Below are positions 3,658 to 60,779 of a stretch of DNA of 64,000 bases, in pieces. Source of the stretch: Thermoflexus hugenholtzii JAD2 (GTDB lineage Bacteria > Chloroflexota > UBA11872 > UBA12225); contig CAMDTO010000001.1 in NCBI GenBank assembly GCA_945907765.1, positions 28,083-92,082 of the forward strand, given 5' to 3'. The notes under the pieces were generated by a model. It was given only the letters and a program-made list of their open reading frames with translations. It did no database searches and had not been told where the DNA came from. Position 1 is the stretch's first letter; the number at the start of each line of letters is the position of its first letter. A program made the translations under genes and the position numbers.

Positions 3658-5313
3658 TTGTTGGATCGAGGCGATATCGTGCGGGCATTGCTAAGCGTGT
3701 GGGACAAGAACGGTCTGGTGGAGTTTGCGCAGGGTTTGCATGATCTGGGTTGGGAACTTGTCAGTACCGGGCAGACGCACGCAACCCTGACCAAGGCCGG
3801 TATTCCGGCGATTTCGGTCGCCGGTGTAACCGGATTTCCAGAAATCCTTGGAGGACGGGTCAAGACCCTCCATCCGGCAATTCATGCCGGCATCCTTGCC
3901 CGGCGCGACGTTCCCGGCGACCTCTCAACACTTGCGGATCACGGGATTGTGGCGGTCGACATGGTGGTCACGAACCTGTACCCGTTTGTCTCGACGATTT
4001 CCGGAAACGATGCCCCGGCCATGGTCGATGGTGACCTGACGGATGCCATCCGTGGGGCAGTGGAACAGATTGACATTGGCGGACCCGCGATGACCCGGGC
4101 GGCAGCAAAGAACTTCGCCCACGTCGCGGTGGTGACGGACCCGCGGGACTACCCGGGCACATTAGAACATCTGCGGGCCGGCAGTTTGACCATGGCGGAA
4201 CGCGTGAGGCTTGCGCAGGTGGCTTTCGCGCATACCGCCCAGTACGACGCGTACGTCGCGGCCTATTTCTCGGCCATGGCCGGTCAGAAGTTTCCGGACG
4301 CCGTTTCCCTCCCGCTGACCCGTTCCTCCTTGCTCACCTACGGCGAGAACCCTCACCAGTCGGCGTCCCTCTACCGGTTAGCCGATTCGCGGTTGACCCG
4401 GCCAGGCCTTGCGGACCTGGTGCACCTTTCGGGAGATGACCCGTCGTACAACAACCTTCTGGACCTTGATTGCGCCTATGCGATCGTCGCGGACTTCATG
4501 GAAGTTGCCGTAAGTATCGTCAAGCACAACAACCCCTGCGGTGTCGGGGTTGGTTCCACGCCTGCGGAGGCGTACCGGCGGGCGTATGCCGGCGACCCGC
4601 TGTCAGCATTTGGTGGTGTCGTGGCATGCAACAGGATAGTCGACGGCGACATGGCACGGGCGATGAGTGGAGTTCTCTACTGGGTCCTCGTGGCACCCGG
4701 ATATACCGATGAGGCACTGAGGATCCTTGGCCGCCGCCAGACCAGGGTCTTCTCACTGCCCGTCCCGGCCACCTCCGGGATGCTGTCAGCATTCGATTGG
4801 CAATACCGGCCAGTGACGGGTGGGTTCCTGGCCCAGTCGCACGACACCGTCAATGCGGACACTGTGAGCTTCACACCTGCATCGGTCCGGGAACTTACCG
4901 TCGCCGAGGAGGCTGATCTCCGGATGGCCTGGCGGATTGTCAGGCACGTGCGTTCGAATGCGAGCGTGTTCGTGCGCGACGGCGCAGTGCGTGCCGTTGG
5001 CGCTGGGCAGATGAGCCGCCTTGACAGTGTGGTTGCGGCGACCCGGATTGCTTCACGCAGTGCGCAGGATGCACGGACTGGTGATGCCCCGCTGATGCAG
5101 GGGGAAAAGGGACTCTCGTCACCGCTTATCGGATCGGTGATGGCCACCGACGGCTTCTTCGCCGATCCGGATGCCGTTGAGGCGGCGTGTGAGGCTGGTG
5201 CAACCGCGATTGCCCATCCCGGCGGGGGACGGAAGGACGCCGACGCGTCAGCGATGGCTGACCGCTATGGCATCGCGCTGGTCACCACCGGATTCCGACA
5301 CTTCCGCCACTGA
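3658..5313 (+). CDS. purH: bifunctional AICAR transformylase / IMP cyclohydrolase
   Basis: It has an MGS-like N-terminus 'RALLSVWDKNGLVEFAQ...STGQT...GRVKTLHP', an AICARFT domain, and a C-terminal '...TTGFRHFRH'. Confidence 0.9.
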   Translation: MLDRGDIVRALLSVWDKNGLVEFAQGLHDLGWELVSTGQTHATLTKAGIPAISVAGVTGFPEILGGRVKTLHPAIHAGILARRDVPGDLSTLADHGIVAVDMVVTNLYPFVSTISGNDAPAMVDGDLTDAIRGAVEQIDIGGPAMTRAAAKNFAHVAVVTDPRDYPGTLEHLRAGSLTMAERVRLAQVAFAHTAQYDAYVAAYFSAMAGQKFPDAVSLPLTRSSLLTYGENPHQSASLYRLADSRLTRPGLADLVHLSGDDPSYNNLLDLDCAYAIVADFMEVAVSIVKHNNPCGVGVGSTPAEAYRRAYAGDPLSAFGGVVACNRIVDGDMARAMSGVLYWVLVAPGYTDEALRILGRRQTRVFSLPVPATSGMLSAFDWQYRPVTGGFLAQSHDTVNADTVSFTPASVRELTVAEEADLRMAWRIVRHVRSNASVFVRDGAVRAVGAGQMSRLDSVVAATRIASRSAQDARTGDAPLMQGEKGLSSPLIGSVMATDGFFADPDAVEAACEAGATAIAHPGGGRKDADASAMADRYGIALVTTGFRHFRH

Positions 5314-14545: not shown

Positions 14546-15253
14546 ATGTCAAACACGTTCTCGTCCCGGTTGGACGCTACCGCTGTGCCACCCCTGTCGG
14601 CGCGCGTTGCCTCGGTTCTAGGGTTTGTGGACGCCCCCGGCACGGCGCCGACCGCGATGTTCCGGGCCCTAGTCTCATTGGCAGGATTGCCCGGTTCGGG
14701 CAAGTCGCACCTCGCGCGTGAGCTTCATGATGAAACGCAGGCTGTCGTGGTCCGGACCGATGAAGTCAGGAAGGTGCTCTTCCCTGTCCCAACCTATTCC
14801 CGTGACGAAAGCATTGCGGTGTACCAGACCTGTTTCGCGGTGGTGAGGGCGCTCCTTCGCGATGGGTATGCAGTGATATTCGACGGTACGAATGGTCGCA
14901 GGACGGGCCGGCGGAGGCTCTCGACGATTGCGCGCGAGACCGGCGCCACGCACCTGCTGGTACGCGTCATGGCTGATGATGAGGTGATCCGGCGTCGGAT
15001 GATCGAGCGCCAAGCCGGGCGCGCACCGTCATTTTCTTCCGAGGCAGGTTGGGACATCCATCAATTGATGGCCGCTTCGGAGGATTACGGTGGGCATTTC
15101 GACGTGGTGGTTGATACCGGATCGGACGCCTCGCGCGCGGTCAACGCGATTAGCCGTTTCCTCAGGGGTGATCGAGGTGGTCTTGATGGTGTTGGAACGC
15201 CGGACGGTGGACGGATGTCCGGAACTGGAATGCGGGGAAGGAAGTTGACATGA
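14546..15253 (+). CDS. P-loop NTPase, AAA_33-like kinase family
   Basis: Walker A 'LAGLPGSGKSHLAREL'. The stop overlaps the pyrF start (ATGA). An alternative start is at 14657. Confidence 0.55.
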   Translation: MSNTFSSRLDATAVPPLSARVASVLGFVDAPGTAPTAMFRALVSLAGLPGSGKSHLARELHDETQAVVVRTDEVRKVLFPVPTYSRDESIAVYQTCFAVVRALLRDGYAVIFDGTNGRRTGRRRLSTIARETGATHLLVRVMADDEVIRRRMIERQAGRAPSFSSEAGWDIHQLMAASEDYGGHFDVVVDTGSDASRAVNAISRFLRGDRGGLDGVGTPDGGRMSGTGMRGRKLT

Positions 15254-16095
15254 CGACATACATGGAGCGTCTGGCGCAGGCGTCGCGGGAGAATGAAAGT
15301 CTCCTGTGTGTCGGTCTTGATCCGGAACCGCACCGGATCCCCGACCACTTCCGAGGCTTGCCGGCACATGAGGCGATTCTGGCATTCAACAAGGAACTGA
15401 TTGATGCCACCTGCGATCTGGTGGCGGCGTACAAGCCGAACCTTGCCTTCTATGAGGCGCTCGGTCCGGAAGGCATGGAAACCCTTCGGGCGACGGTGCG
15501 ACACGTGCCGAATGGTGTGCCGGTGATCGCTGATGCGAAGCGTGGTGACATCGACCACACAATGCGCCTGTACGCGACGGCGGTGTTTGACGTGTACGGT
15601 TTCGATGCGGTGACTGCCAGCCCGTATCTTGGACGAGACGCATTGCTTCCGTTCCTTGACCGGGCTGACCGGGGAACGTACATACTTTGCAGGACCTCCA
15701 ACCCCGGTGCCTCGGACATTGCCGAACTGGACGTTGGAGGAGATCCACTCTATCTGCGTGTGGCCGAACGGGTACCGACATGGACATCGCACGCGAACAT
15801 TGGACTGGTCGTCGGGGCGACGGCTCCGACACAACTGGCGCGGGTTCGCGCGGTGGCGCCGGGCGTACCGATCCTGCTGCCGGGCGTGGGCGCGCAGGGC
15901 GGCGATCTGGAGGCATCGGTAGCGGCGGGTCTGGACCTGACGGGGGACGGGCTGTTGGTAGTGGTCGCCAGACAGGTCATGTACGCCTCAAGCGGGTTGC
16001 GGTTCGCGGAGGACGCGCGGACAGCGGCGCGGGAAATCCGGGATCGGATCAACGTCGCCCGGTTGACCGCGATCGACGCTCGTCGCGGGAGATAG
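15250..16095 (+). CDS. pyrF: orotidine 5'-phosphate decarboxylase (type 2)
   Basis: 'LLCVGLDPE', 'VIADAKRGDI' and 'LLPGVGAQGG' are type-2 OMPDC motifs. It is 281 aa. Confidence 0.9.
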   Translation: MTTYMERLAQASRENESLLCVGLDPEPHRIPDHFRGLPAHEAILAFNKELIDATCDLVAAYKPNLAFYEALGPEGMETLRATVRHVPNGVPVIADAKRGDIDHTMRLYATAVFDVYGFDAVTASPYLGRDALLPFLDRADRGTYILCRTSNPGASDIAELDVGGDPLYLRVAERVPTWTSHANIGLVVGATAPTQLARVRAVAPGVPILLPGVGAQGGDLEASVAAGLDLTGDGLLVVVARQVMYASSGLRFAEDARTAAREIRDRINVARLTAIDARRGR

Positions 16096-16169
16096 TCCCG
16101 GTACCGGTGATTGATGCGGCAGCACTTGATGCAACGCCTCGCGCGCCTCGGTATGACCCGTCGGTGCCA

Positions 16170-16370
16170 ATGGCATTCCAGTTGGATGATCTGGTGCGCC
16201 TGAAGAAGGCTCATCCGTGCGGCGGGACCGATTGGGTTGTATTCCGCCTAGGGGCGGACATTGGTCTGCGGTGCGGCACATGCGGCCATCGCGTCCTGGT
16301 TCCCCGACGCGAACTGGAACGGCGGGTCGTACGTCTTCTCAGGCCGGGAGACGCCGGGTCAAACGCTTGA
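16170..16370 (+). CDS. DUF951 family protein
   Basis: A 66 aa protein with 'KKAHPCGGTDWVVFRLGADIGLRCGTCGHRVLVPRRELE', typical of DUF951. It lies in frame inside a longer spurious ORF. Confidence 0.6.
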   Translation: MAFQLDDLVRLKKAHPCGGTDWVVFRLGADIGLRCGTCGHRVLVPRRELERRVVRLLRPGDAGSNA

Positions 16371-17276
16371 TCAGATGGTTCGGGGCATCAGCCCAAGAAA
16401 CGCGATCAAGAGAAGCCCGGCCAGGGTGATCACCCCGTATTCCAGAGTGACCCGCATGCGTAGCCTTGCGTGCAACGCATACGTGAGGATGCCGGTGACA
16501 AAGTAGTAGACGGCGAGGAGAAATGCCCCTCCCTGCAGGCCGTTGAGCGGCCAGTAGTTCAGCGCCCATGTCACTTCGCCGACACCGATCCCCGTCACGG
16601 ACGCATAGAGGATTGTCCGACGCCACGACGGTGCAAGGGTCCTGAAGCGGCCGCTCGCGGTCAGATCCGGGGCCCTCACGACCGGGAACCGCCCACTCAT
16701 GCGAAGGCGTTCGGGCACGCTCAGGGTAGTGATGTCCACCGTTGGTGTCGGTTCCGGCGTACGGTCGGGGAACGCCACCTGGGTCAATCGGAGGTGACGT
16801 GCGCTCAGAAGGATCGTGACCGCAACGATTGCGGTCGCCGAAAACAGGCTGCGTGTTCGCGTCTGGTAAATCGCGCCGTACAAGACGAAGGCGGCGATGT
16901 ACCCGGCGAGGGCGAGAACTGTCTCGCCGTAGTCTCGCCGGAGGACCTGCCTCGTGAGCGCCCACTCAGTCCAGAGGACCGCGAACGTCAAGGCGCCGAA
17001 CCCGCCGAGGCCGAAGACAAACTGGGCGCCCGTCGGAAGCAGTGGCAGGAAGAAGAGGGCGCCGAAGACTAACGCGCTTGGCAGGATGAACTGCTCTACC
17101 GTGGATCCCCGCCGTGCCTCACCGCGAAGGATCAGGTCCAACCCGGCAGATACCGTGATGACGATGGCGAACGCGAGGCCGAGCAGTGGCAAACCGGTTG
17201 CGCCGACGCTCAGCGCAACGCCAAGGACAACCACGGCAACGACGACGGTGATCTTTTCAAGCGTCTGGATCGACAT
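16371..17276 (-). CDS. integral membrane protein, uncharacterised
   Basis: Multiple hydrophobic helices. The start was chosen at MSIQTLEK. Its stop abuts the DUF951 stop with zero gap. Confidence 0.45.
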   Translation of the reverse strand: MSIQTLEKITVVVAVVVLGVALSVGATGLPLLGLAFAIVITVSAGLDLILRGEARRGSTVEQFILPSALVFGALFFLPLLPTGAQFVFGLGGFGALTFAVLWTEWALTRQVLRRDYGETVLALAGYIAAFVLYGAIYQTRTRSLFSATAIVAVTILLSARHLRLTQVAFPDRTPEPTPTVDITTLSVPERLRMSGRFPVVRAPDLTASGRFRTLAPSWRRTILYASVTGIGVGEVTWALNYWPLNGLQGGAFLLAVYYFVTGILTYALHARLRMRVTLEYGVITLAGLLLIAFLGLMPRTI

Positions 17277-17460
17277 CGTGATCCATGGAAGGGTATCTGG
17301 CAGATGCGTGCGTTGTCCGTCACGACGCTTCACGTGGCGGTGCTACACTCGCGACGGTCGGGGGGATGCACCTCGATCATGCTGCAGTCGGACCGGATGT
17401 GACCCGCCAGCCAGCTGCGTGTGGCCGTCATGCCAGGTGATTCCGGCGAGGGGTTCGCGC

Positions 17461-17991
17461 GTGAGTAACGTGGTTCTCGTCCTGAACCTGAACTACGAGC
17501 CTTTGAATATCTGTGGTCTGGGCCGTGCAGTTGCCCTCGTTGGTGCGGGGAAGGCCGAGATCCTTGCTTCAGGAATGGAGGACATCCGGACGTCGCGCGC
17601 AGTGTTCCCGCGCCCCAGAGTGATCAAGTTGCAGTATTTGGTCCGGCGACCTCGGGCGCAGGTGAGGCTGACCCGCCGCGAGGTCTTCATCCGTGATGAC
17701 TACACCTGCCAGTACTGCGGCCTGAGAGGTCGGGAACTGACCTTGGACCATGTGGTTCCCCGCCATCTTGGCGGTCGCCACGTCTGGGACAACCTGGTAA
17801 GTGCCTGTCGGCCCTGCAATCATCGCAAGGGTGGAAAGCGTCTTGATGAGACGCGGATGCGCCTGGCGCGCCCTCCACGACGTCCTCCGGCCACGCAGTA
17901 TTTCACCGGCGTGCAGCGGCAGAACCGTGAAGAGGCTGAAGCGTGGGCGCCGTACCTGCCCGCGCTTGAGGTCACGCTGCCTGGCATGTAG
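17461..17991 (+). CDS. HNH endonuclease family protein
   Basis: 'CQYCG...LTLDHVVPRHLGGRHVWDNLVSACRPCNHRK' is an HNH motif. A GTG start lies in frame inside a longer ORF. Confidence 0.75.
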   Translation: MSNVVLVLNLNYEPLNICGLGRAVALVGAGKAEILASGMEDIRTSRAVFPRPRVIKLQYLVRRPRAQVRLTRREVFIRDDYTCQYCGLRGRELTLDHVVPRHLGGRHVWDNLVSACRPCNHRKGGKRLDETRMRLARPPRRPPATQYFTGVQRQNREEAEAWAPYLPALEVTLPGM

Positions 17992-28204: not shown

Positions 28205-28402
28205 GTCGGGGCGGTTTCCACGGCAGTGTGGAGGATATTGCGAAGTCTCACGAAATGCACCAACGATCCGTTCCACCCTCCATCATGGCGGGCTGGCCAA
28301 GCCAGTCGTGCAACGTCGCCATCCCATTTGCGTTCGGTTATTGGGTGACCATAAAGCGGCCGCGCCTTTTCCGGGCATTTTCGTCCGGTTGGAGGAGTGT
28401 GG

Positions 28403-31117
28403 TTGAGACCCACCCTGGCGAAGGGACACTCGGTGAGCGATTCGACCTCCTGGGCATACGCGCTGCTCGTGGTGCTGCTTGCTGCACCCGTGTTGGCTGC
28501 CGTTGTCGTGCTTGTGACGATGGTCGGACAGTCGGAGACGAACCGTGTGCCAGTGCAGGCGAGTGGAAGTGGTGGGCAGTCGGTTGCTCAGGACGTCCGC
28601 CCGGTAATCGTGATGCAACGCGTCTCCCGAGCGTCGGCGCGAAGGCCCGGTTCCGCGGCTGATCCGGTTGGCAGGCAGGTCACATCGCCTGCAACCCTCC
28701 ATGAACGGATTGACCGATTCACTTCACGGCGACGCGAGCCGACGCGTAGACGCCGTGGTGATTCACCTGCTGGCGATACGGACCCGGTGCCGTACCCGAG
28801 TTCCTCGTGGCCGGCGGTCGCGCCGCCACTGATCGAAACCCCTGGGGTCACCCGGCCGGATTCCCACGCGTCCGGTGACCTCGGGCGTGACGCATCGACC
28901 CCGAGGTCCTGGGGTCAGTGGGTCCGCGCCCTTGTTGAGCTGACCATCCCGCCACGTCAGGTAAGGCCACCAGTTGGTGCGAGACAGGTGGCAGTGCGGG
29001 CAATTGTGGCGGAGACCCCGGAGATACCGGCTCGGGCCGAGGGCGGGTATGTGCTCCCACCAGTCCGTGTACGGGCCGGACTTGCAGGAATTGATGGGTC
29101 GCCACGCCTCCCGCTCATGGTCTCTGCGATTGCGGAAATCGAGGCTGGTCCCGACGTATCGCGTCACGACGGGGCAGGTCCAATGCCATCTAAAGCGGAG
29201 ATTGTTGCTCCCGACGTGGACGGGTTCGAATTGGGTTTAATTCCAGCGGTGATCGATCAGTCGACTCAGATCCAAATGTCGTTCCTGCTGGCCGAGCCTG
29301 ACGGTGGCGACGGGTTCGTGATTTCAGAGCCTTCTCTTCACGACCTAACTCGCTTGGCGCCGGTTTCGGAGGTGGCGGCGTCTTTCGAGTGGGATGTGGC
29401 TCAGGACGTGGAATCCACCGGTTTCGAGGCGGAACCAGTTGCAGATGGCCCAGATATTGTGATCGCGGTTCCATCTGAACTGGTGTTAGGGGCACCGGTT
29501 GTCGCGTTTGAACTGGTCGAAGTTGAACCGGCCAACGCGGTACCGGCGCCAGATTTGGCCTTCGAACCCGTCATGGCCGACGTCGAGATAGCACTGGTCT
29601 CCGAGGATGACCTGGTGGAGGTGGACACGACGGTCGCCATGCCCGAACCAGTGTTGGAAATCGAACCCGTCTTGGCCGAAGTAAAGATAGCACTGGTCGC
29701 CGAGGGGGACCCGGTTCAAGTGGAACCCGACGTAGGGATTGCAGAGCCTGAGATGGCGATTGAGCCCGTCACGGCGTACGTGGTGGAGATACCGATAGAC
29801 GTGGTGGAGGTGGTCGTGGCGGAGACCAACGTCGCAATGGCACTGACAGACATGACCATCTCACCGGTCATGGCTGATGTTGACGAAGCACTGTTATCCG
29901 AGGGTGACCCGGTTCAAGTGGAGCTTGTCTACGCGGTGCCGATGCCTGTAATGGCAAAAGCACCAGTCATGGCCGACTTCGAGGAAGCACCGGTTGTCGC
30001 GTCTGAACTGGTCGAAGTTGAACCGGTTAACGCGATGCCGGCGCCAGTCATGGCAAATGAACCCGTCATGGCTGATGTTGAGGAAGCACTGTTAGCCAAG
30101 GGTGGCCCGGTTCAAGTGGAGCTTGTCTACGCGATGCCGATGCCTGTGATGGCAAACGATCCAGTCATGGCCGAAGTCGAGGAAGCACCGGTTGTCGCGT
30201 CTGGACTGGTCGAAGTTGAACCGGTCCACGCGATGCCGGCGCCAGTCATGGCAATCGAACCCGTCACGGTTGACGTCGAGGACGCACTGGTAGCCCAGGC
30301 TGACCCATTCGAAATGGAACCTGGCGTAGCGATTCCGGAGCCAGAGATGGCGATTCGGCCCGTCACGACGTACCTGGTGGAGATACCGATGGACGTAGTG
30401 GAGGTGGTCGTGGCGGAAACCAACGTCGCGATGGCACTGCCAGACATGGCTATCTCACCAATCATGGCTGACGTCGGCGAAGCACCGGCTGTCGATTCAG
30501 CTTCGGAGGAGGAGGAACCCGTTTACGCGACGCCGGTGCAAGTGTTGCCGGTCGAACCCGTCGTGGCCGAAGTCGCGGAAGTTTCTGCGTCCGACCAAGA
30601 GATTGGTGAGGATCACGTCGCGCTTGGTTTTGAGAACCAACATGTCGTGGATGCCTGGGCCGCGATGACGCAGATTGAAACGGTCGATGTGGCGACGCCG
30701 TCAGTGGAGGGACTCGAACTTGAACCGTTCGTGGATGTTCCTGTCGCGGCCCTCGCCTCCGAGGTGGACGGCATCGGGACGGAAGCACTGGTGAAACCCG
30801 CAGAGGACGTGTCTCCAGTGGCAACAGGTCCAGCTGATCAGTCTGGCTCCGAACAAAGCCATATGGGGACTGGCGTGCTCGGGACAGGGCAGTCAGCCAT
30901 CGATGAACCTGACCTCGCGATTAATGGGTTGGACTGCGACGAGGAAGTTGGGCCCGCGATGGCGGAGGCAACGTTCACTCTACCTCCGGCACCTCCAGTC
31001 GAGGAACCTCAGCCAGCGTGGATGCCCCTGCCACGGTCTCCAAAGTTCCGCTGGGTTCGGGTTGCGATGCAGGCGACTGAGGTAACCGTACCTCGCGATG
31101 TCTTTGCTGGACAGTAG
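28403..31117 (+). CDS. membrane-anchored, highly acidic tandem-repeat protein (E/V/P/A/M-rich), unknown function
   Basis: A ~905 aa ORF with GC3-rich codons. GGAGGA lies at 28391-28396, with a TTG start at 28403 (a GTG at 28397 is also possible). There is an N-terminal hydrophobic anchor 'WAYALLVVLLAAPVLAAVVVLVTMV'. A ~1 kb internal region consists of 66 aa repeats. Confidence 0.6.
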   Translation: MRPTLAKGHSVSDSTSWAYALLVVLLAAPVLAAVVVLVTMVGQSETNRVPVQASGSGGQSVAQDVRPVIVMQRVSRASARRPGSAADPVGRQVTSPATLHERIDRFTSRRREPTRRRRGDSPAGDTDPVPYPSSSWPAVAPPLIETPGVTRPDSHASGDLGRDASTPRSWGQWVRALVELTIPPRQVRPPVGARQVAVRAIVAETPEIPARAEGGYVLPPVRVRAGLAGIDGSPRLPLMVSAIAEIEAGPDVSRHDGAGPMPSKAEIVAPDVDGFELGLIPAVIDQSTQIQMSFLLAEPDGGDGFVISEPSLHDLTRLAPVSEVAASFEWDVAQDVESTGFEAEPVADGPDIVIAVPSELVLGAPVVAFELVEVEPANAVPAPDLAFEPVMADVEIALVSEDDLVEVDTTVAMPEPVLEIEPVLAEVKIALVAEGDPVQVEPDVGIAEPEMAIEPVTAYVVEIPIDVVEVVVAETNVAMALTDMTISPVMADVDEALLSEGDPVQVELVYAVPMPVMAKAPVMADFEEAPVVASELVEVEPVNAMPAPVMANEPVMADVEEALLAKGGPVQVELVYAMPMPVMANDPVMAEVEEAPVVASGLVEVEPVHAMPAPVMAIEPVTVDVEDALVAQADPFEMEPGVAIPEPEMAIRPVTTYLVEIPMDVVEVVVAETNVAMALPDMAISPIMADVGEAPAVDSASEEEEPVYATPVQVLPVEPVVAEVAEVSASDQEIGEDHVALGFENQHVVDAWAAMTQIETVDVATPSVEGLELEPFVDVPVAALASEVDGIGTEALVKPAEDVSPVATGPADQSGSEQSHMGTGVLGTGQSAIDEPDLAINGLDCDEEVGPAMAEATFTLPPAPPVEEPQPAWMPLPRSPKFRWVRVAMQATEVTVPRDVFAGQ
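29490..30490 (+). repeat. nested in-frame tandem repeats: 198 bp unit and 600 bp higher-order unit
   Basis: 'gcaccggttgtcgcg(t/c)(t/c)tg(a/g)actggtcgaagttgaaccgg' recurs at 29492, 29987 and 30185. A ~110 bp block 'gtggtggagataccgat(a/g)gacgt(g/a)gtggaggtggtcgtggcgga' occurs at ~29773 and ~30373. Confidence 0.75.
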
Positions 31118-33445: not shown

Positions 33446-34447
33446 ATGAGCGCCGCAACAGCTTGGCTGTTCCCGGGCCAGGGTTCCCAGGCGGTTGGGA
33501 TGGGGCATTCGTTGTACCGGGACTCGGCGGCGGCGCGGGACGTATTCGTGGTTGCGGATGCGGTCTGGGGCGGTTCACTCACGGGCGCGATGTTCGATGG
33601 CCCGGCCGAAGGGTTGCAGGCAACGGTTGTCACGCAACCGGCAATCGTCTCGGTAAGTCTGGCAGCGCTTGCAGCGGTTCGAGAGGCGTGGGAAGCACGG
33701 CAAGGAACACCGCTCCCAGAACCGTCGTTCGTTGCGGGGCACAGTGTCGGTGAATTCGCCGCGGTAGTGGCTAGTGGTGCAACAGATGTTGCGACCGGAC
33801 TTCGGCTAGTGTGCGAGCGAGCGCGGCTGATGCAGTGGGCGGCCGAGACGAACCCCGGAAGCATGGTTGCCGTCCTAGGCTTGGCACGTGACCTCGTTGA
33901 GGAGTCTTGTTTATCCGCGCGGGAGGCGGTGACTGGAAGTTACGTGTCGGTGGCCAATGACAACGCGCACACTCCGGCCCAGATCGTCATCGCAGGTGAC
34001 TTGGCCGGGCTCGAGGCTGCAAGTGCGGAGTGCCGGGCACGTGGTGCGCGCCGGTGTGTCCCATTGACGGTAGGTGGTGCATTCCACTCAGCTGCGATGG
34101 CGCCCGCTCAGGAAGGTCTCGCACGTGCCATCTCGATGGCGCCCTTCGGCGATCCTCGTGTGCCAGTTATCGCAAATGTCACGGCAACCGCATTGCGTCG
34201 CGCCCGCGAAATCCGGACAGAACTTGCAACGCAGGTGGTCAGCCCCGTTCGCTGGGCGGACACGGTCGCTCTGCTTGCCGAAGCCGGTTGCCGCCGGTTT
34301 GTGGAGTTCGGGCACGGCACGGTTCTCGGAAATCTCGTGCAGCGCGCGATACCGGATGCTGCGGTCCAGAGCGTCGGTGATGCCGACGGCGTGGCACGGG
34401 TAGCGGAGTGGCTCGGTCGTGACGTGGGTGGGCATGCCAATGCCTGA
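33446..34447 (+). CDS. fabD: malonyl CoA-ACP transacylase
   Basis: 'WLFPGQGSQAVGMG' and 'GHSVGEFAA' place the active-site Ser in the GHSxG motif. Confidence 0.85.
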   Translation: MSAATAWLFPGQGSQAVGMGHSLYRDSAAARDVFVVADAVWGGSLTGAMFDGPAEGLQATVVTQPAIVSVSLAALAAVREAWEARQGTPLPEPSFVAGHSVGEFAAVVASGATDVATGLRLVCERARLMQWAAETNPGSMVAVLGLARDLVEESCLSAREAVTGSYVSVANDNAHTPAQIVIAGDLAGLEAASAECRARGARRCVPLTVGGAFHSAAMAPAQEGLARAISMAPFGDPRVPVIANVTATALRRAREIRTELATQVVSPVRWADTVALLAEAGCRRFVEFGHGTVLGNLVQRAIPDAAVQSVGDADGVARVAEWLGRDVGGHANA

Positions 34448-51323: not shown

Positions 51324-52043
51324 TCAGTCGCCCAGATAGAGGCGTCGGGTGTCCGGATTCGCGAGGAGTTCGGCACCTGTGCCTTCGAGTCGGTTACGCC
51401 CGAGTTCGAGCAAGTAGGCGTGGTCGGCGAGTGCGAGTGCCTTGGCGGCATTCTGTTCGACGACGAGCATTGAGAGTCCCTCGGACTTCAGCATTGCCAG
51501 CGTTTCTAAGACGACCCTGACGAACCGCGGCGCAAGGCCGAGCGAAGGTTCATCGAGGAGGATCAGACGGGGTTGGATCATCAGGCCACGGGCAATCGCT
51601 ACCGTTTGCTGTTCGCCTCAGGACATGGTCCCGGCAAGTTGGGTGCGTCGTTCGGCGAGGCGCGGGAACAAGTCGTACACCCGCGCGAAGGCTTTTGCGC
51701 GGGTGGCTGCGTCACTTACGGTGAACGCGCCCATTTCCAAGTTGTCATGTACTGGCATCTGACCGAAGACAATCCGTCCTTGGGGAATGTAGGCGAGGCC
51801 AAGGGGCACCAGTCGGTCGGAACGCATTCCGCTAATCGCCTGTCCGTCGAAGGTGACGGTTCCAGAAGTCAGGCGTGCAAAGCCGGTGATCGCCTTGAAA
51901 ACGGTTGATTTGCCCGCCCCATTCGGGCCAATCAGGCTGACAAACTGGCCAGGACGCACGACCATGCGTATCCCACGCAGGACCGGGACGCGCCCGTACC
52001 CCGCGTGAAGGTCCGTGCAATTCAGGAGGATTTCGTCGTTCAT
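51324..52043 (-). pseudogene. livF: livF-like ABC ATPase, interrupted by in-frame TGA within the LSGGE signature
   Basis: The N-terminal half ORF ends '...LAGTMS*' and the downstream ORF continues 'GEQQTVAIARGLMIQPRLILLDEPS' in the same frame. The TGA at 51618-51620 replaces the GGA (Gly) codon. Confidence 0.7.
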
Positions 52044-52065
52044 GGTGGGGCAATGGTCGACCGGG

Positions 52066-52799
52066 TCAGGTGCCGAAATAGGCGTCGATGACGCGCGGGT
52101 CGGCACGGATCACCGAGGGGTCTCCGTCGGCGAGCAATTCACCGTGGTCGAGGACAATCAGCCGGGAACACAGTGCCATGATGAGTTTGATTTCATGGTA
52201 GGTAATCAGGAAAGTCTTGCCTCGTTCCCGAAGGGCAAGGATATGGGTGCACAGGCGCTCCTCCATAACGGGGTTCACCCCGGCATATGGTTCGTCGAGG
52301 AGGATGACGTCGGGATCGTTCACCAGCACGCGTGCGAACTCGAGAAGCTTCTGCTGCCCATACGACAGGTTGGCGGCGAATTCGTCGGCAACGGGGGAGA
52401 GCCCGACAAAGGCGAGTGAGTCGCCTGCCCGGGCGGATGCCTCACGCGCAGGGGCTCGTGTGACGGCGACGAGGTTTTCCATGGCGGTCATTTGCGGATA
52501 GAGGCGCGAAAGCTGGAAGGTACGGCTGAGGCCAAGGCGGTTTCTGACGCTCGCCGGCTTGTGGGTGATTGCCGTGCCTCGCAATCGGATTTCGCCGGTG
52601 TTGGTCGGTATCTCACCGGAATCAGGCGAAACAGGGTGCTCTTGCCCGACCCGTTCGGGCCGTTCGGGCCGATCAGTCCGGTCACTGTTCCGGCCGCGAT
52701 GCCGAATGAGACGCCATCCACGGCAATCACTCCGCCGAACCGTCGGGTTACACGGTCGACGGAGAGGATCGGATCGACTGGGTGGTCGGGTTCCATCAT
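52066..52799 (-). pseudogene. livG: livG-like ABC ATPase, with a 1 nt frameshift and a 9 bp duplication at the P-loop
   Basis: The N-terminal ORF '...GLIGPNGPNGSGKSTLFRLI' shifts frame at ~52641-52652. The shifted frame reads the canonical 'SGEI...RLRGTAITHK' and joins the C-terminal ORF. Confidence 0.7.
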
Positions 52800-52812
52800 C
52801 TGGTTTCCGGGA

Positions 52813-53760
52813 TCACAGACGACGCGACCGGGGGATCCAACCCCGGTCCTGGAGGATCTGGGTGATGCCTCCGGGCAAGAAGAGGACGATGGCAGTGATG
52901 AGTACGCCTGATAGGGCGGTGTGAAGGAACGGAAACTTCGCCCAGAGTGCCTCGCTGATGCCCGAAAGTAACACGCTGCCAAGCACCGGCACAAAGACCG
53001 TCCCCTGCCCGCCAAGCATGGTCATCGCGATTGCCCTGACGGTCAAGGACCCGGCAAAGACGGTCCCAGGATCGATGTAACTCATCTGCCAGGCGTAGAT
53101 GCCTCCCGCAAGACCTGCAAAGAGTGCACTGACCGCAAAGGCACCGATCTTCAACCGAGTTGTCTGGAGGCCATTGAGTTCAGCCGCAACCTCATCCTCG
53201 CGGGTGGCGAGGAGACGGAGGCCGACCGGTAGGGTCGCAACCCGGTAGGTCACCAGGACCGTTGCAGTCGCCACCGTGAACATTGCGTAGTACGCGACGG
53301 TGAGGACGTCCTCGGGGATCAGTACAAGTCCGTTGCCTCCGCTGGTTAGCGGTTCGGCGACGGTCACGCCAATCCTGATGGCCTCGGCCACGCCAAGCAT
53401 GCCGACCGAAAATTAGGGGGCTCGTAGTCGAAGGGCTGGATACCCGAAGAGGGGACGGGCTGACGCGGCGGCGATACCCGCCACGACAATGGCAATTGGT
53501 GCGGGCATCCCTCCCCGGACGATTGCGATGCCGGTGGCGCATGCCCGGATGCCGCAGAATGCCGAATGCCCGAAACTGACATACCCCGTGAAGCCTGAGA
53601 TCAGGTTCCACGAGGAGGCGAGCGCACACGCCATCAGTGCCTGCATGACGAACGTCTTGGTGTAGTTCGACCCGAAGACTGGCACCAAGGCGATGGTCAT
53701 GGTCACTGCCCCGATGATCCCTGGGTAGATCCGTATGCCGCGCGTACCGGTCGCCGGCAT
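52813..53760 (-). pseudogene. livM: livM-like branched-chain amino acid ABC permease, interrupted by in-frame TAA
   Basis: '...YPALRLRAP*FSVGMLGVAEAIRI': the TAA at 53413-53415 sits where the conserved Tyr of 'GPYFAIATLG' is expected. Confidence 0.65.
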
Positions 53761-53831
53761 GTTCGTTGGGGATTCCTCGTCGGACGGTTCGTCGGCGTGC
53801 GGGGCGTAGCGGTGGACGCAGGCATTGGTGG

Positions 53832-54692
53832 TCAGGCCTCCTTGAGGACAAAGAAGCCTTGGGGACGCAAGAGGAGCATTGCAAGCAGGGTGATGTAGAC
53901 GACCGCTTCGGCGATCTGGGCGGTCGTGACGTAACTTGCGGTGGATTCGATGACGCCGAGGACGATCGCACCGAGGAACGCGCCTGGAAAACTCCCCATG
54001 GCGCCCAAGACCATCACGGCGAATGCCTTGAGCATGAAAGTCTTCCCCATTTCCGGGTAGACCGTGTAGAGAAACCTGGTGAGCGTGCCGGCGGCCCCGG
54101 CAAGGGCAGTTGCGATCCCGAACGCGATCATGCGGGCGCGGTCAATGTCGATGCCGCACGCGAGGGCGACGTCGGCACTCTGGGCGGTCGCACGCAATGC
54201 TTTGCCCCATCTGGTTCTCGCGAGGAAGAACTGCGCGGCGCCGGTGAGCACGAGGGCAGTGACACATGCCACCAGTCGTGGGACTGAGAAGGCAAGTTCA
54301 CCGATGTTGAGTGCCCCGCTCAGGAATGGGACCGAACGGAAGTCGTTGGTGAAAGTTGCTTGGGCGCCTCCGGTGAGTGCGAGTGAGACCCCGTAGGTTA
54401 GGAGGAGCGAAGTAAGGAGTGGTGCACGCACCACGCGCGAAATCAGCAACCGTTGTGCAATCCATCCGACTCCGAACATCAATGGCATGGATATGAGCAG
54501 CGAAAGGATGGGGTTTAGTCCGATGAGAACGAACAGGAAGAATGATGCGTAGGCGCCGAGCATCAGGAACTCGCCGTGGGCGAGGTTGATTACCCGCATC
54601 ACACCGAAGATGAGGGTCAAGCCCCCTGCGAGACGCGCGTGGACGTCGCCGAGTGGAAGGCCACTCACCACCACCTGCACCAGTGTGACCAA
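53832..54692 (-). CDS. livH: branched-chain amino acid ABC transporter permease
   Basis: 'GLPLGDVHARLAGGLTLIFGVMRVINLAHGE' is the LivH N-terminal signature. The reading frame is intact. Confidence 0.8.
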   Translation of the reverse strand: MVTLVQVVVSGLPLGDVHARLAGGLTLIFGVMRVINLAHGEFLMLGAYASFFLFVLIGLNPILSLLISMPLMFGVGWIAQRLLISRVVRAPLLTSLLLTYGVSLALTGGAQATFTNDFRSVPFLSGALNIGELAFSVPRLVACVTALVLTGAAQFFLARTRWGKALRATAQSADVALACGIDIDRARMIAFGIATALAGAAGTLTRFLYTVYPEMGKTFMLKAFAVMVLGAMGSFPGAFLGAIVLGVIESTASYVTTAQIAEAVVYITLLAMLLLRPQGFFVLKEA

Positions 54693-54761
54693 CTCCCCTC
54701 ATCTTCCTCCGCCGAAACTTCCCCGTCAAGGCTGGCCTGCGCCGGCGATCACCGAGCAGGC

Positions 54762-56009
54762 CTAGCGTGACTTCCACTCCGGCATCGGGAACTTTGGTTT
54801 GGCGGTTGCCATTGCGTCGGGGCCGATCACTGGCTTGTCCTTGCCTTGCCACTGGATAACGACCGGGATGTGTGACAACTGGATACCCGTGTCGTCAACC
54901 TTGTACTTGCCTGGAAGGACGGTCTCGATCTCCAGGGTCGAGAGGGCCTCGCGAATCTTCTCCCGGTCAAGGCTTTTCGCCTTGAGCACCGCAGCTTCGA
55001 GGATCTGGCCTCCGGCGAAACCCGTTGCGGAATGATAGTCCGGTTCCCGGTTCCACTTCTTCTTGTATGACGCCTCGAACTCGCTGTTGCCTTTGGTCTT
55101 GAGGCTTGGCTCCCACATCGACGGACCGAAGATGAAGTCTGCGTCCTTGCCGAGGCCCTCGCCGAACTCGGGCATCGCGGCGCCGACCGAGAACGCAAGC
55201 ATCTTGACATTCAGGTCGAGTTCCTTGGCCTGCCGGGTGATCAGGACCGAGTCGGGTTGGTAGGAACCGCCGACGAGGACTTCAGGTTTCGCAGCCTTCA
55301 ACTTGGTGATGAGGGATGACAGGTCCGTCACCTTGGTGGGGTATTGCTCTTGAAAGACGATCCGGAAGCCTTCCTTGCGGGCATATTCGGCGGTTCCGGC
55401 GGCGGTTGCCTTCGCAAAGGCGGTGTCTTCTGTGATGATCGCGATCGTCTTGAGGCCATTCTTCTTGGCGAGGTCAATCACGCCATAGAAGTAGGACTCG
55501 GCGACCGAATAGACACCGAAGACGTACTTGTAGTTGCGCTTCCAGATGTCTGAAGCCGACGCTCCGGCGGACAGCATCGGGTACTTGTATTTTTCGGTGA
55601 CGGTCGATACCGCTTGGGTGACGCCACTTGAGTACGGTCCGAGGACGAGGTCGACCTTGTCCTCATTGATGAGCTTCTCGTAGAGCTTCGTGCCGACGGT
55701 TGGGTCGGACTGGTCGTCAAGGATGACCATTTCCACCTGGCGTCCAAGAAGCCCACCACGGGCGTTGAGCTGTTCGGCCCACAACTGGTAGGCCTCCACC
55801 TGGTACTGCCCGGTCTTGCCGTTGCTGCCGGTGGTGGATACGGATGCCCCGATCTTGACCGGTGCGCCCTTTGGTGCCCCGCCGGTTGCCGGTGCCGCGG
55901 GCGCGGCGCTTTCACCCGCATCGCCACCGCAAGCGGACAGGATGAGGCCCGCGAGTCCGAGGGCGGCCGGGGTTCCCGCCAGAATTGATCTTCTCGTGCG
56001 AGTGGTCAT
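54762..56009 (-). CDS. livK: ABC transporter substrate-binding lipoprotein (branched-chain amino acid, LivK-type)
   Basis: A signal sequence 'MTTRTRRSILAG...LILSAC' with a Tat-like RR and a lipobox Cys, followed by a periplasmic binding fold. Its GC is lower than the flanking genes. Confidence 0.8.
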   Translation of the reverse strand: MTTRTRRSILAGTPAALGLAGLILSACGGDAGESAAPAAPATGGAPKGAPVKIGASVSTTGSNGKTGQYQVEAYQLWAEQLNARGGLLGRQVEMVILDDQSDPTVGTKLYEKLINEDKVDLVLGPYSSGVTQAVSTVTEKYKYPMLSAGASASDIWKRNYKYVFGVYSVAESYFYGVIDLAKKNGLKTIAIITEDTAFAKATAAGTAEYARKEGFRIVFQEQYPTKVTDLSSLITKLKAAKPEVLVGGSYQPDSVLITRQAKELDLNVKMLAFSVGAAMPEFGEGLGKDADFIFGPSMWEPSLKTKGNSEFEASYKKKWNREPDYHSATGFAGGQILEAAVLKAKSLDREKIREALSTLEIETVLPGKYKVDDTGIQLSHIPVVIQWQGKDKPVIGPDAMATAKPKFPMPEWKSR

Positions 56010-56253: not shown

Positions 56254-57240
56254 ATGCAACTTTCGTTCGATGTTCCGGTGATGCCTTTCCGGTACGAACG
56301 TGGCATGTATCTCGAGGATGCGGGGATGTGGCTTGATCCGCATACCCGACGCCCGGTTGCGTACGTGTCCCACGGGCATTCAGACCACTGTCGTCCGCAC
56401 GGTCATGCATTCGTGACCCCGGAGACTGCGGACTTCTACCGGCTCCGAACGGGGCGCACGGCACTCACCGTGATGAACATCGGAGAGACGCTAACCAGAG
56501 GACTGCAAGAGGTCGATGTCTTTCCTGCGGGACACGTCCTGGGTTCGTCGCAGGTCCGTGTGCGTGACCTCGCGACTGGGCATCGGCTGGTCTATACCGG
56601 CGACTTCAAGTTGCGCCCCTCGCTCACGTCCCCGAGTGCGCCCGTTCTCGAGTGCGAAACCCTGGTCATGGAATGCACCTACGGCGCACCGCGGTTCACC
56701 TTTCCGCCAACTCAACAGGTCGTGGCGGAGTTGATTGCTTGGGTCGCGGCGGTTATTGCATCGGGGAACATACCGGTGGTCTGTGGTTATGCGCTTGGGA
56801 AGGCCCAGGAGGCGATGGCAATCCTGCACCAAGCCGGCCACCTGGTCGCGGTTCATCCAAGCATCCAACCCTACGCGGAAATCTACACGCGACATGGTGT
56901 GGAACTCGGGCCGTACGTGGTCATGTCAGCCGATCCGGGTTCGCCGTCAGGTTCAGAGGGCCGGGTCATCGTCTGCCCGCCCCACCATGCCCGTTCAATC
57001 CGGGAGACGATGCCCCTCACCCGAATGATGATCCTGACCGGGTGGGCGATTGATGGCGGTGCGCCCGGGCGGCTGCCGATGGGCACGGCACTCCCTCTCT
57101 CGGACCATGCTGGGTTCGATGACTTGGTCGAATACGTTGAGCGCGCCCGCCCGAAGGTCGTCTACACCGTCCACGGCAATGGCGGGTTTGCGCAACACCT
57201 TCGCCGGCAAGGCATCGAGGCCCACCATTTGGGTGCGTGA
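56254..57240 (+). CDS. MBL-fold metallo-hydrolase (beta-CASP-like, putative nuclease)
   Basis: 'VSHGHSDH' is an HxHxDH motif, with later 'DHAG' and 'TVHGN' motifs. The ATG at 56254 is in frame within a longer ORF that overlaps livK on the other strand. Confidence 0.65.
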   Translation: MQLSFDVPVMPFRYERGMYLEDAGMWLDPHTRRPVAYVSHGHSDHCRPHGHAFVTPETADFYRLRTGRTALTVMNIGETLTRGLQEVDVFPAGHVLGSSQVRVRDLATGHRLVYTGDFKLRPSLTSPSAPVLECETLVMECTYGAPRFTFPPTQQVVAELIAWVAAVIASGNIPVVCGYALGKAQEAMAILHQAGHLVAVHPSIQPYAEIYTRHGVELGPYVVMSADPGSPSGSEGRVIVCPPHHARSIRETMPLTRMMILTGWAIDGGAPGRLPMGTALPLSDHAGFDDLVEYVERARPKVVYTVHGNGGFAQHLRRQGIEAHHLGA

Positions 57241-57989: not shown

Positions 57990-60662
57990 CTAGGATGATA
58001 CGTGCGGGGTGCGCGCCCCAACCTCCACTTCCTTGTCTAGCGGGAGGGCGGGATCATCACCGGTCGTGACGCGGTAACTCTTTCCCGTGGCCTCGTCGAG
58101 TTCGACATATCCGGCATCTTCGAGGTCGTCCATGAGTTTTGCGGCTTTCGGGTACCCGATGCCGAGTTTCCGTTGCAGGAAACTGACGCTGACGTGGTTG
58201 CTGGTACGCAAGACCTCGACTGCACGGTCAAGCAGGGCCGATGCCCGGTCCTGCTTCTCGGAGGCTGCTTCCTCGTCGCGCAGGCAGAGGGCGTCGATTT
58301 CACCCTTGCTCACGTAGTTGGGGCGCCCCTGATCCTTCCAGAACTGGACAATCTTGGAGAGTTCCTCGTCGGAGACCCACGCACCCTGAACGCGGACGGG
58401 GCGGCCTTGATCGTAAGGCAGGTAGAGCATGTCCCCGCGCCCCAGTAGGGCCTCGGCACCGCCGGTATCCAGAATGACGCGCGAGTCGGTCTGGCTGGCA
58501 ACTGCGAAGGCGATGCGGCTGGGGATGTTCGCCTTGATGAGTCCGGTCACGACGTTGACGCTTGGCCTTTGCGTTGCCACGACCAGGTGAATCCCGACGG
58601 CCCGTGCCTTGGCGGTGAGGCGGCAGATGGCCGGCTCGACGTCGTCCGGGGCGAACATCATCAAGTCGGCAAGTTCGTCAATGATCAGGACGATGTAGGG
58701 CAATGGCTTAGGCCGGGTCAACGCGGTCCAGGCCTCATGTCGCCCATTGCCGGCCGGTGGCGTCGAGTCCTCGGCGTTTGCCTCGATCGCACGGTTATAG
58801 GCATCCAGATGGCGATACCCGGCTTTTGACAAGAGGGTGTAACGACGTTCCATTTCCTCGCACGCCCACAACAGCACTTTCCCGGCTTCGGCAAGGTCGG
58901 TGACAACCGGGTACCGGAGGTGGGGAATGCCCTCGTATTCGGCAAGTTCGACCTGTTTGGGGTCGATCATGAGGAGGTTCAGTTCGTCGGGACGGCAGTG
59001 TGAGAGCAGCGAGGCGATGATCGTGTTGACGCACACGGACTTGCCGGCGCCCGTCTGGCCGGCAATCAGGAGGTGGGGCATTCTTGCGAGGTCACCGACA
59101 CGAGGCCGCCCGTCGACATCGCGCCCAAGTGCAACCCGTAGGCGACCCTTGCTTTCGGTGAACTCGCGGGTCTCGAGAACCTCGCGCAGGCCGACCGAAG
59201 CCGCCCGGTCGTTCGGGATCTCTATCCCCACGAAGGGTCGTCCGGGAACCGGGAGTTCGATTCGCAAAGTCTTGGCAGCGAGACGCAACTGGAGGTCGTA
59301 CTCGTACCGCTTGATGGTCTTGACGGGTACGCCCTCCCCGGGAACAAGCGAGAACTGGGTGACTGTCGGGCCAACTCGCGCTTCCCGCACCGTGACCGGG
59401 ATGTTGAAGCTCAGAAGGGTCTTTTCGATCGTGGCGGCCTTCTCGGCAATTTCGTTGTCGCCCATCTGTTGCGCGACAGAGACGGAAAGCAGGGAGAGTG
59501 GCGGAAGTTGCCATCGTTCCGGCCACGGTGCCGGTTCTAACGATGACCGGGTCGGGGGCTCTGACGGGGTGGTCTGGCCAGAGGCATCGGGACGCCCCGA
59601 TTGGTTGCCAGTTTGGATGATCAGGGTTCGCGTTCCGGAGTCTCCAACTGAATCTGGACTGGCTGGTGGATTGCGACGTCCACGGGGTGAAACGGTGGGC
59701 TCATCATGGTCTTGAGTGCGAGTTCGGGAGGGGCGCTTTCCGGCATCCTGGTCAAGTTCGGACTCGTCCGTCCCGAGAGGGGGCGGGGGATTGAGGTTCG
59801 CGACCATGGTGGAGATCGTGCGGAAGGTGCTCATGACCAGCGCCACGAAGGCGCGACCGAAGTGTGTCGTGGCCCAGACGAGCGCCGTGGCGGTGCAGCG
59901 TCCGGTGGCGATGATTCCAACGAGGAGGTTCCTGCCAAGTGATTCCCAGTACGGACGCGGGATTCCAAGGAGGAGGACTGCACTGGCCGTTGAGAGGACG
60001 AGTGCAGTCGCGATTGCACCTGCACTTCCGACCGATAGGTTCAGAATGGACCACGTGACGTTTCCGAGTGCTCCGGATCCATCGGCAGTGGTCGAACTTG
60101 AGCCGATGCCGACGGGTCCGGACGCGCCGAGTGTGCCTACACCAAGGAGGAACCCGAAGCCTCCGAGCAGGCGCATCATGACCTGACGGCGCCACGCGAT
60201 CTCACCGAGGGCGATGGTGGCGCCGACTGCTCCAATCAGGGCGCACCAGGGCACGGTCAACCAGCCCCCAGCTTGCTCGAGTGCGTGAGCAAGTGCCCCG
60301 GTCGCGGCGCCATCGGGAGACAGGATTGCCAATGATCCGTAGATGGCGATGAGCAACAAGGCTCCGCCACTGACGCGCAGGGCCGTCGCCGGGCTGACGG
60401 TGAATGATGGGATGGAACCGGGGCGTGCCTTGGGGGGCGCGTCGCGTCTCGCGGTGGCACGGGTGCTTGGCGTGATGGTGGACGTTCGGCCCGACACGAT
60501 CCTGGGTCCCTCCCGTTGCGGCTCGTCCCTCGAACCCCACCCCATGCGAGCACCCAAGTGGGGTGCGGCGATGGGAATAGCTTTCCGGCACATGCGGGGA
60601 GCAGACGCGTGACCGTGCCGATTGCCCGAGCACAATCCGTCCCAACGCAAGAACGGATGCAA
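57990..60662 (-). CDS. ftsK: DNA translocase FtsK/SpoIIIE
   Basis: N-terminal TM helices, 'IAGQTGAGKSVCVN' Walker A, 'LVVATQRPS', and a C-terminal gamma wHTH 'SVSFLQRKLGIGYPKAAKLMD'. Confidence 0.85.
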   Translation of the reverse strand: MHPFLRWDGLCSGNRHGHASAPRMCRKAIPIAAPHLGARMGWGSRDEPQREGPRIVSGRTSTITPSTRATARRDAPPKARPGSIPSFTVSPATALRVSGGALLLIAIYGSLAILSPDGAATGALAHALEQAGGWLTVPWCALIGAVGATIALGEIAWRRQVMMRLLGGFGFLLGVGTLGASGPVGIGSSSTTADGSGALGNVTWSILNLSVGSAGAIATALVLSTASAVLLLGIPRPYWESLGRNLLVGIIATGRCTATALVWATTHFGRAFVALVMSTFRTISTMVANLNPPPPLGTDESELDQDAGKRPSRTRTQDHDEPTVSPRGRRNPPASPDSVGDSGTRTLIIQTGNQSGRPDASGQTTPSEPPTRSSLEPAPWPERWQLPPLSLLSVSVAQQMGDNEIAEKAATIEKTLLSFNIPVTVREARVGPTVTQFSLVPGEGVPVKTIKRYEYDLQLRLAAKTLRIELPVPGRPFVGIEIPNDRAASVGLREVLETREFTESKGRLRVALGRDVDGRPRVGDLARMPHLLIAGQTGAGKSVCVNTIIASLLSHCRPDELNLLMIDPKQVELAEYEGIPHLRYPVVTDLAEAGKVLLWACEEMERRYTLLSKAGYRHLDAYNRAIEANAEDSTPPAGNGRHEAWTALTRPKPLPYIVLIIDELADLMMFAPDDVEPAICRLTAKARAVGIHLVVATQRPSVNVVTGLIKANIPSRIAFAVASQTDSRVILDTGGAEALLGRGDMLYLPYDQGRPVRVQGAWVSDEELSKIVQFWKDQGRPNYVSKGEIDALCLRDEEAASEKQDRASALLDRAVEVLRTSNHVSVSFLQRKLGIGYPKAAKLMDDLEDAGYVELDEATGKSYRVTTGDDPALPLDKEVEVGARTPHVSS

Positions 60663-60779
60663 GGTCTTGATGTCTCAGAACCAGTGGGACCCCGAACGGG
60701 CAGGCAGGTGACCGCCGGTGTTCGACCCGAACGGGGTCGAGTGGGTCCCGTTGTGACGGGTGAGGGGAGGCACGCCTGG

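Follow-up and report, generated by a model that had tools for sequence, protein, structure and literature searches.

Among ABC importers of the HAAT family (TC 3.A.1.4), LivJ/K-LivHMGF of Escherichia coli and UrtABCDE of cyanobacteria and actinobacteria share a five-gene architecture. Decay of operons and unitary pseudogenes after relaxed selection are known from Mycobacterium leprae, Salmonella Typhi, Shigella and insect endosymbionts. The present analysis deals with a livK-livH-livM-livG-livF operon on a stretch of 64,000 nt (contig CAMDTO010000001.1, 28,083-92,082), hereafter called the window, to whose positions all coordinates refer unless another contig is named. In architecture and domain content the operon equals the Liv and Urt systems; it differs from them in that all five proteins stay far under the equivalog cut-offs and in that disruptions affect three of its genes. 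We are highly confident that it represents a recent, locus-specific pseudogenisation of a HAAT-family livK-H-M-G-F operon in one freshwater Chloroflexi population.

The locus resembles the decay in M. leprae, S. Typhi, Shigella and endosymbionts in showing multiple independent lesions per unit, a raised ratio of nonsynonymous to synonymous substitution rates (dN/dS, omega), continued decay and later deletions, the latter in a neighbouring clade termed clade C below. However, unlike those cases it appears confined to a single locus of a free-living planktonic bacterium, with about 45 intact neighbours, and is not a genome-wide reduction. Importer type and unitary-pseudogene process are thus both standard, and only the instance is new, with an unusually complete comparative series.

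The five genes are collinear on the minus strand (51324-56009), and pyrR-pyrB-pyrC-carA-carB come next on the same strand:

56009-54762, minus strand: livK-like substrate-binding lipoprotein gene, 415 aa, open reading frame (ORF) open, Pfam Peripla_BP_6
54692-53832, minus strand: livH-like permease gene, open ORF of 286 codons, Pfam BPD_transp_2 (PF02653), E=3e-37
53760-52813, minus strand: livM-like permease pseudogene, interrupted in the window, BPD_transp_2 (PF02653), E=3e-29 after repair
52799-52066, minus strand: livG-like ATPase pseudogene, ABC_tran and BCA_ABC_TP_C (PF12399) after in-silico repair
52043-51324, minus strand: livF-like ATPase pseudogene, ABC_tran after in-silico repair

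With a Peripla_BP_6 binder, two BPD_transp_2 permeases and two ABC ATPases, one of them with BCA_ABC_TP_C, the locus holds the gene set of the family and is, as predicted from these domains, a HAAT-family (Liv/Urt-type) ABC importer. LivK carries a signal peptide and the lipobox LILSAC, aligns with 339 of the 343 profile positions of Peripla_BP_6 (PF13458, E=1.1e-69) and finds its closest solved structure in the ‘probable Leu/Ile/Val-binding protein’ 8wch, the relatives in the PDB being Leu/Ile/Val-binding. The NCBIfam equivalog cut-offs were missed by LivH (93 vs 379 bits), LivM (95 vs 366), LivG (188 vs 362) and LivF (232 vs 441) and likewise for UrtABCDE (TIGR03407-03411; 91 vs 493, 185 vs 250, 63 vs 296, 155 vs 304 and 196 vs 286 bits). 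Because no Liv or Urt cut-off was reached, the liv names as well as ‘branched-chain amino acid’ serve as family labels only and do not name the substrate.

An earlier interpretation of the letters alone (the sequence-only reading) had described livM, livG and livF as inactivated by a TAA, by a frameshift together with a 9-bp duplication, and by a TGA, respectively, and direct translation recovered all of these lesions:

53413-53415, minus strand: premature TAA in livM, in frame (LRLRAP-stop-FSVGM), ancestral Tyr codon TAC
52653-52670, minus strand: tandem 9-bp duplication in the Walker A motif (P-loop) of livG, GGCCCGAAC twice
52620-52621, minus strand: 1-nt deletion (TTT to TT) in a T-run of livG, a T missing from ATT-TCC, frameshift after the P-loop
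51618-51620, minus strand: premature TGA in livF at the first Gly of the signature SGGEQQ (AGTMS-stop-GEQQ), ancestral codon GGA

All four lie within 2.4 kb of the 64-kb window. The deletion in livG had been placed at about 52645; it exists, with its position corrected by some 25 nt to 52620-52621. The two premature stop codons arose by G:C>T:A transversions and split livM into ORFs of 115 and 195 aa and livF into ORFs of 141 and 85 aa, and the duplication converts GPNGSGKST into GPNGPNGSGKST (read as GPNGPNGSGKS), an insertion of three residues in the P-loop. Compared to the intact orthologues at this locus, all three genes have a disrupted ORF and are thus pseudogenes. The transporter would be non-functional, because the signature motif is missing from LivF, the reading frame of LivG shifts directly after Walker A and LivM is divided into two pieces.

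These lesions recur far beyond the single consensus sequence of the window. Exact-protein look-up retrieved the identical LivK protein on eight contigs from independent assemblies, the 141-aa truncated LivF on 13 contigs (10 different samples among the matches listed) and the 115-aa N-terminal fragment of LivM on four contigs. Sources were ENA (ERZ27280213/-234/-329), NCBI (GCA_029981895.1/-815.1/-975.1) and several Logan runs, which amount to at least 10 independent assemblies. When 15 near-identical contigs were compared, the TAA, the frameshift and the TGA were present in the derived state in every contig covering the site in question, and the scattered single-nucleotide polymorphisms (SNPs) that set these contigs apart from the window show that they do not merely repeat a single assembly. 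The lesions are hence real, base-calling error being excluded on the basis of the assembled contigs. Haplotypes with only some of the three primary lesions were not found among the 15 contigs. The 9-bp duplication, however, is missing in L002/L027 and L030, which do carry the frameshift; it therefore arose later and is still segregating. Contigs of JGI metagenomes, scanned by exact pattern for haplotypes with and without duplication and frameshift, yielded no match.

The ancestral state was retraced with six related freshwater Chloroflexi metagenome-assembled genomes (MAGs) from a one-genome-per-species scan and eleven loci from a protein-based metagenome scan. The closest relative, L007, shares 96.5% nucleotide identity with the window over 19 kb and possesses an intact liv operon; at the sites of the lesions it reads TAC, ATT-TCC and GGA, precisely the codons and the missing T that had been predicted as ancestral, and a single GGCCCGAAC. 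Across the orthologues compared at codon level (L007, L009-L012) these sites show TAC/TAT, GGN and ATT/ATC/GTG-TCN without any duplication. The orthologous operon is whole in L007, L009, L010, L011, L012, L014, L015, L021 and L023, and in L008, L013 and L020 it is intact over the parts covered by their contigs; except for one clade (L017-L019), every relative covering the operon has kept it. Judging by the label of one relative only, the window lineage probably belongs to TK10, a hypolimnion cluster which was named Ca. Umbricyclops (Mehrshad et al., 2018; PMC6169038).

Beyond the lesions themselves, purifying selection on the liv genes is relaxed in the window lineage. Differences between the window and L007 were polarised with L009 as outgroup by parsimony counting, not by a likelihood model. 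In the five liv genes, 57 nonsynonymous and 43 synonymous changes fell on the window branch compared to 10 and 46 on the L007 branch (omega 0.46 vs 0.08), a roughly six-fold nonsynonymous excess on the window branch (binomial p=4e-9). Eight flanking genes (listed as carA, pyrC, pyrB, pyrR, the RMMBL-domain gene, cinA and the 3' end of ftsK), in contrast, were symmetric with 31/53 and 26/57 changes and omega of 0.20 vs 0.16. With L010 as outgroup the outcome was the same (58 vs 11 nonsynonymous liv changes). On the window branch livM reached an omega of 1.25, and nonsynonymous changes were more numerous there than on the L007 branch in livH (13 vs 1), livF (11 vs 1) and livK (7 vs 2), the last difference not being significant alone. 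A rough calculation, assuming a single switch of omega from about 0.08 to 1, would put the phase without constraint at about the final 40% of the branch.

The replacements also struck conserved positions: at sites invariant in 9-12 orthologues, 25 window-unique replacements were counted compared to none in L007. Eleven of them belong to livM (e.g., FFGIGAY to FCGIRAC) and eight to livH, including LLLGGVYALLAGG to LPLGDVHARLAGG; an invariant motif near the N-terminus of livH suffered four replacements within eight residues (13-20), and its start codon has changed from ATG to TTG. Window-unique changes in livG are F169Y and D198Y, the latter adjoining the His of the H-loop. In livK four such replacements (P91Q, N193T, V197A, P199A) affect sites invariant in 12 orthologues, where lineages with an intact operon show none or one. 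The sequence-only reading had taken livK and livH as intact, which is correct as far as their ORFs are open; however, livH is without an ATG start and under relaxed constraint, and livK is possibly drifting.

Decay has continued in the broken population, in which 14 SNPs and the duplication segregate in livG and livM (1.7 kb); a first comparison of four contigs had yielded 13 coding SNPs, eight of them nonsynonymous and five synonymous. At three invariant sites the window carries radical derived residues (G>R at 53457, I>T at 53204 and D>Y at 52200). Other broken strains retain the ancestral residue there, and hence these changes arose after inactivation.

The decay appears confined to the liv locus. 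Among about 45 other predicted genes of the 64-kb window, all with full-length Pfam matches, no other split or clearly broken gene was found, and since the neighbouring genes are whole, the process appears to be locus-specific and not genome-wide. This full-length domain coverage was also the reason to reject decay of the whole genome or poor quality of the assembly as explanations.

The exceptional clade mentioned above, clade C, comprises three contigs from three other metagenome assemblies, whose LivK is 90% identical to that of the window:

L017 6001-7465, L018 5065-7419 and L019 501-2863: degraded operon of clade C, intact livK and remnants

Here livK is followed by an internal fragment of livH (246 bp), a fragment spanning the livH/livM junction (355 bp) and livF from codon 67 on, three deletions having taken the rest of livH, livM, livG and the 5' part of livF. 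The first of these deletions begins about 3 bp or less from the stop codon of livK. Neighbour-joining trees of livK and of flanking genes placed clade C outside the group of window, L007 and L009 (clade A), and because intact operons are present in clade A as well as in clade B (L010, L008, L013-15, L023), the two losses are independent. In clade C, constraint on livK is relaxed as well, if perhaps not lost altogether: omega on this branch is 0.29 compared to 0.05-0.06 elsewhere, and 12 invariant sites carry unique replacements, Y126N and Y175H among them. In two of the three sub-clades the operon is under strong purifying selection (omega 0.04-0.13). In addition, a 1.8-kb contig of clade B (L016) shows CGA>TGA at codon 84 of livK (291-1535), which, being seen in a single contig, may represent either a third case of inactivation or an error of sequencing.

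According to the explanation favoured here, selection on the importer would have been lifted in some populations, after which ordinary mutational erosion would have set in. The window lineage would then represent an early stage with point lesions and missense drift, in which livH is probably already drifting and livK possibly so, with no stop or indel in either yet, and clade C a later stage with deletions. The substrate may have become dispensable for the window population, a notion supported by the independent deletion of the same operon in the neighbouring clade. Some results weigh against complete release from selection: omega on the window branch stays below 1 in livG (0.42) and livF (0.49), which is not proof of full neutrality, although a branch that lies partly before inactivation should yield such values; furthermore, livK shows neither a disrupting lesion nor any polymorphism in about seven contigs and may still be under some selection.

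That the operon is intact and the lesions are errors of sequencing or assembly has next to no probability. A 1-nt deletion in a short T-run is a classic error context, and the window is a consensus; yet the identical TAA, frameshift and TGA occur in contigs from at least 10 samples and different pipelines which differ at other SNPs, and errors would not yield a missense excess at invariant sites alongside the lesions. Decay instead of base errors, as initially proposed, is thus upheld by the shared lesions, the ancestral codons in relatives and the nonsynonymous excess. It is hardly more credible that functional products are still made, be it by recoding of TGA as Gly, readthrough of TAA, programmed +1/-1 frameshifting or split polypeptides. 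TGA=Gly codes occur in some bacteria, the TGA of livF stands exactly at a Gly codon, and an ATG four codons past the stop in livM would in principle allow two half-permeases. However, two different stops and a frameshift would call for three separate mechanisms, the closest relative has plain GGA, TAC and TTT, and TGA, which ends 27 of 50 predicted genes, is the most frequent stop codon of the window. The argument against recoding had been drawn from purH and pyrF before; purH (3658-5313) indeed ends with TGA, but pyrF (15250-16095) ends with TAG, and the argument holds with the wider count. Moreover, livM with its omega of 1.25 and destroyed invariant motifs, a P-loop of LivG with a three-residue insertion in most strains, and a LivF which, if restarted at the next ATG, lacks the signature motif do not suit functional products.

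Two further alternatives accept the loss and differ as to its cause or extent. Loss of the translocator may have been positively selected, owing to uptake of a toxic analogue, a surface-exposed target or cost saving in an oligotrophic hypolimnion; the independent deletion in clade C and the three knock-outs fixed in the window population, with no intermediate haplotype found, would fit this. Nothing, however, separates selected loss from neutral decay after relaxed selection, and strong purifying selection is maintained in two of the three sub-clades. We consider positive selection unlikely. A little less unlikely, albeit still improbable, is the retention of livK as an orphan binding protein for another transporter or sensor after its cognate translocator had been discarded. 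As in orphan substrate-binding proteins, livK stands alone beside remnants in clade C and is the best-preserved gene in the window; it is the only gene intact in both independent losses, the first deletion of clade C begins no more than about 3 bp from its stop codon, and in the broken population it has no polymorphic site compared to 14 SNPs and one indel in livG/livM. Unlike orphan proteins, however, it comes with no sign of another partner, and its constraint is relaxed in both lineages, as seen in the omega of clade C and the four unique invariant-site changes of the window. Furthermore, given one hit and judged by gene lengths, the chance that the other three lesions miss both livK and livH is about 0.15, and zero SNPs in 1.25 kb of livK are not significantly fewer than the approximately 2 per kb of flanking functional genes, for which reason low SNP density as a sign of constraint was dropped. 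The far-reaching combination, in which TK10-type freshwater Chloroflexi repeatedly discard the translocator and keep LivK, the loss being adaptive and LivK having a second, translocator-independent role, is quite doubtful; if true, LivK might act as partner of another ABC system, as sensor input or as surface binding protein.

Decay after relaxed selection, as preferred here, means that an operon was caught early in its erosion in an uncultivated, globally distributed lake bacterium. What makes the case useful is an intact sister only 3.5% away, mutations segregating after inactivation and an older, independent case at the deletion stage next door, which together form a natural time series of operon erosion from point lesions via missense drift to deletions. 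No new mechanism is revealed by the decaying operon, but it hints at niche differences in organic-nitrogen use among near-identical hypolimnion populations. It also serves as a warning for annotation, as metabolic inventories of MAGs would score livK and livH as a working transporter.

Some minor observations were made in the surroundings of the operon. In the RMMBL-domain gene (56755-56787) five substitutions within 33 bp are found in the window only, compared to four otherwise near-identical contigs, and could stem from recombination over a short tract or from a local peculiarity of the assembly. L001 matches the window almost perfectly between 44.7 and 59 kb, yet the two diverge by about 20% over the 5' third of ftsK (59000-60775), in which L007 is only about 5% different from the window; the pattern points to import by recombination or to a hypervariable linker region in FtsK.

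Elsewhere in the window, Rfam and tRNA scans detected only a tRNA-Val (2556-2632) and nothing in or near the liv operon. The interval 33508-34088 (580 bp) is without selected ORF, Rfam or tRNA match and is flanked by small ORFs without Pfam match. Two ORFs of 906 and 295 aa (28397-31117 and 13-900) show a good coding-type GC content at third codon positions and no Pfam match at E<=1e-3. In the region 16095-17991, about 860 bp without a convincing gene, where short overlapping ORFs and atypical codon-position GC are seen, are followed by an ORF of 345 aa whose sole Pfam match is a C-terminal HNH endonuclease domain, and the region may represent a degraded or mobile HNH element.

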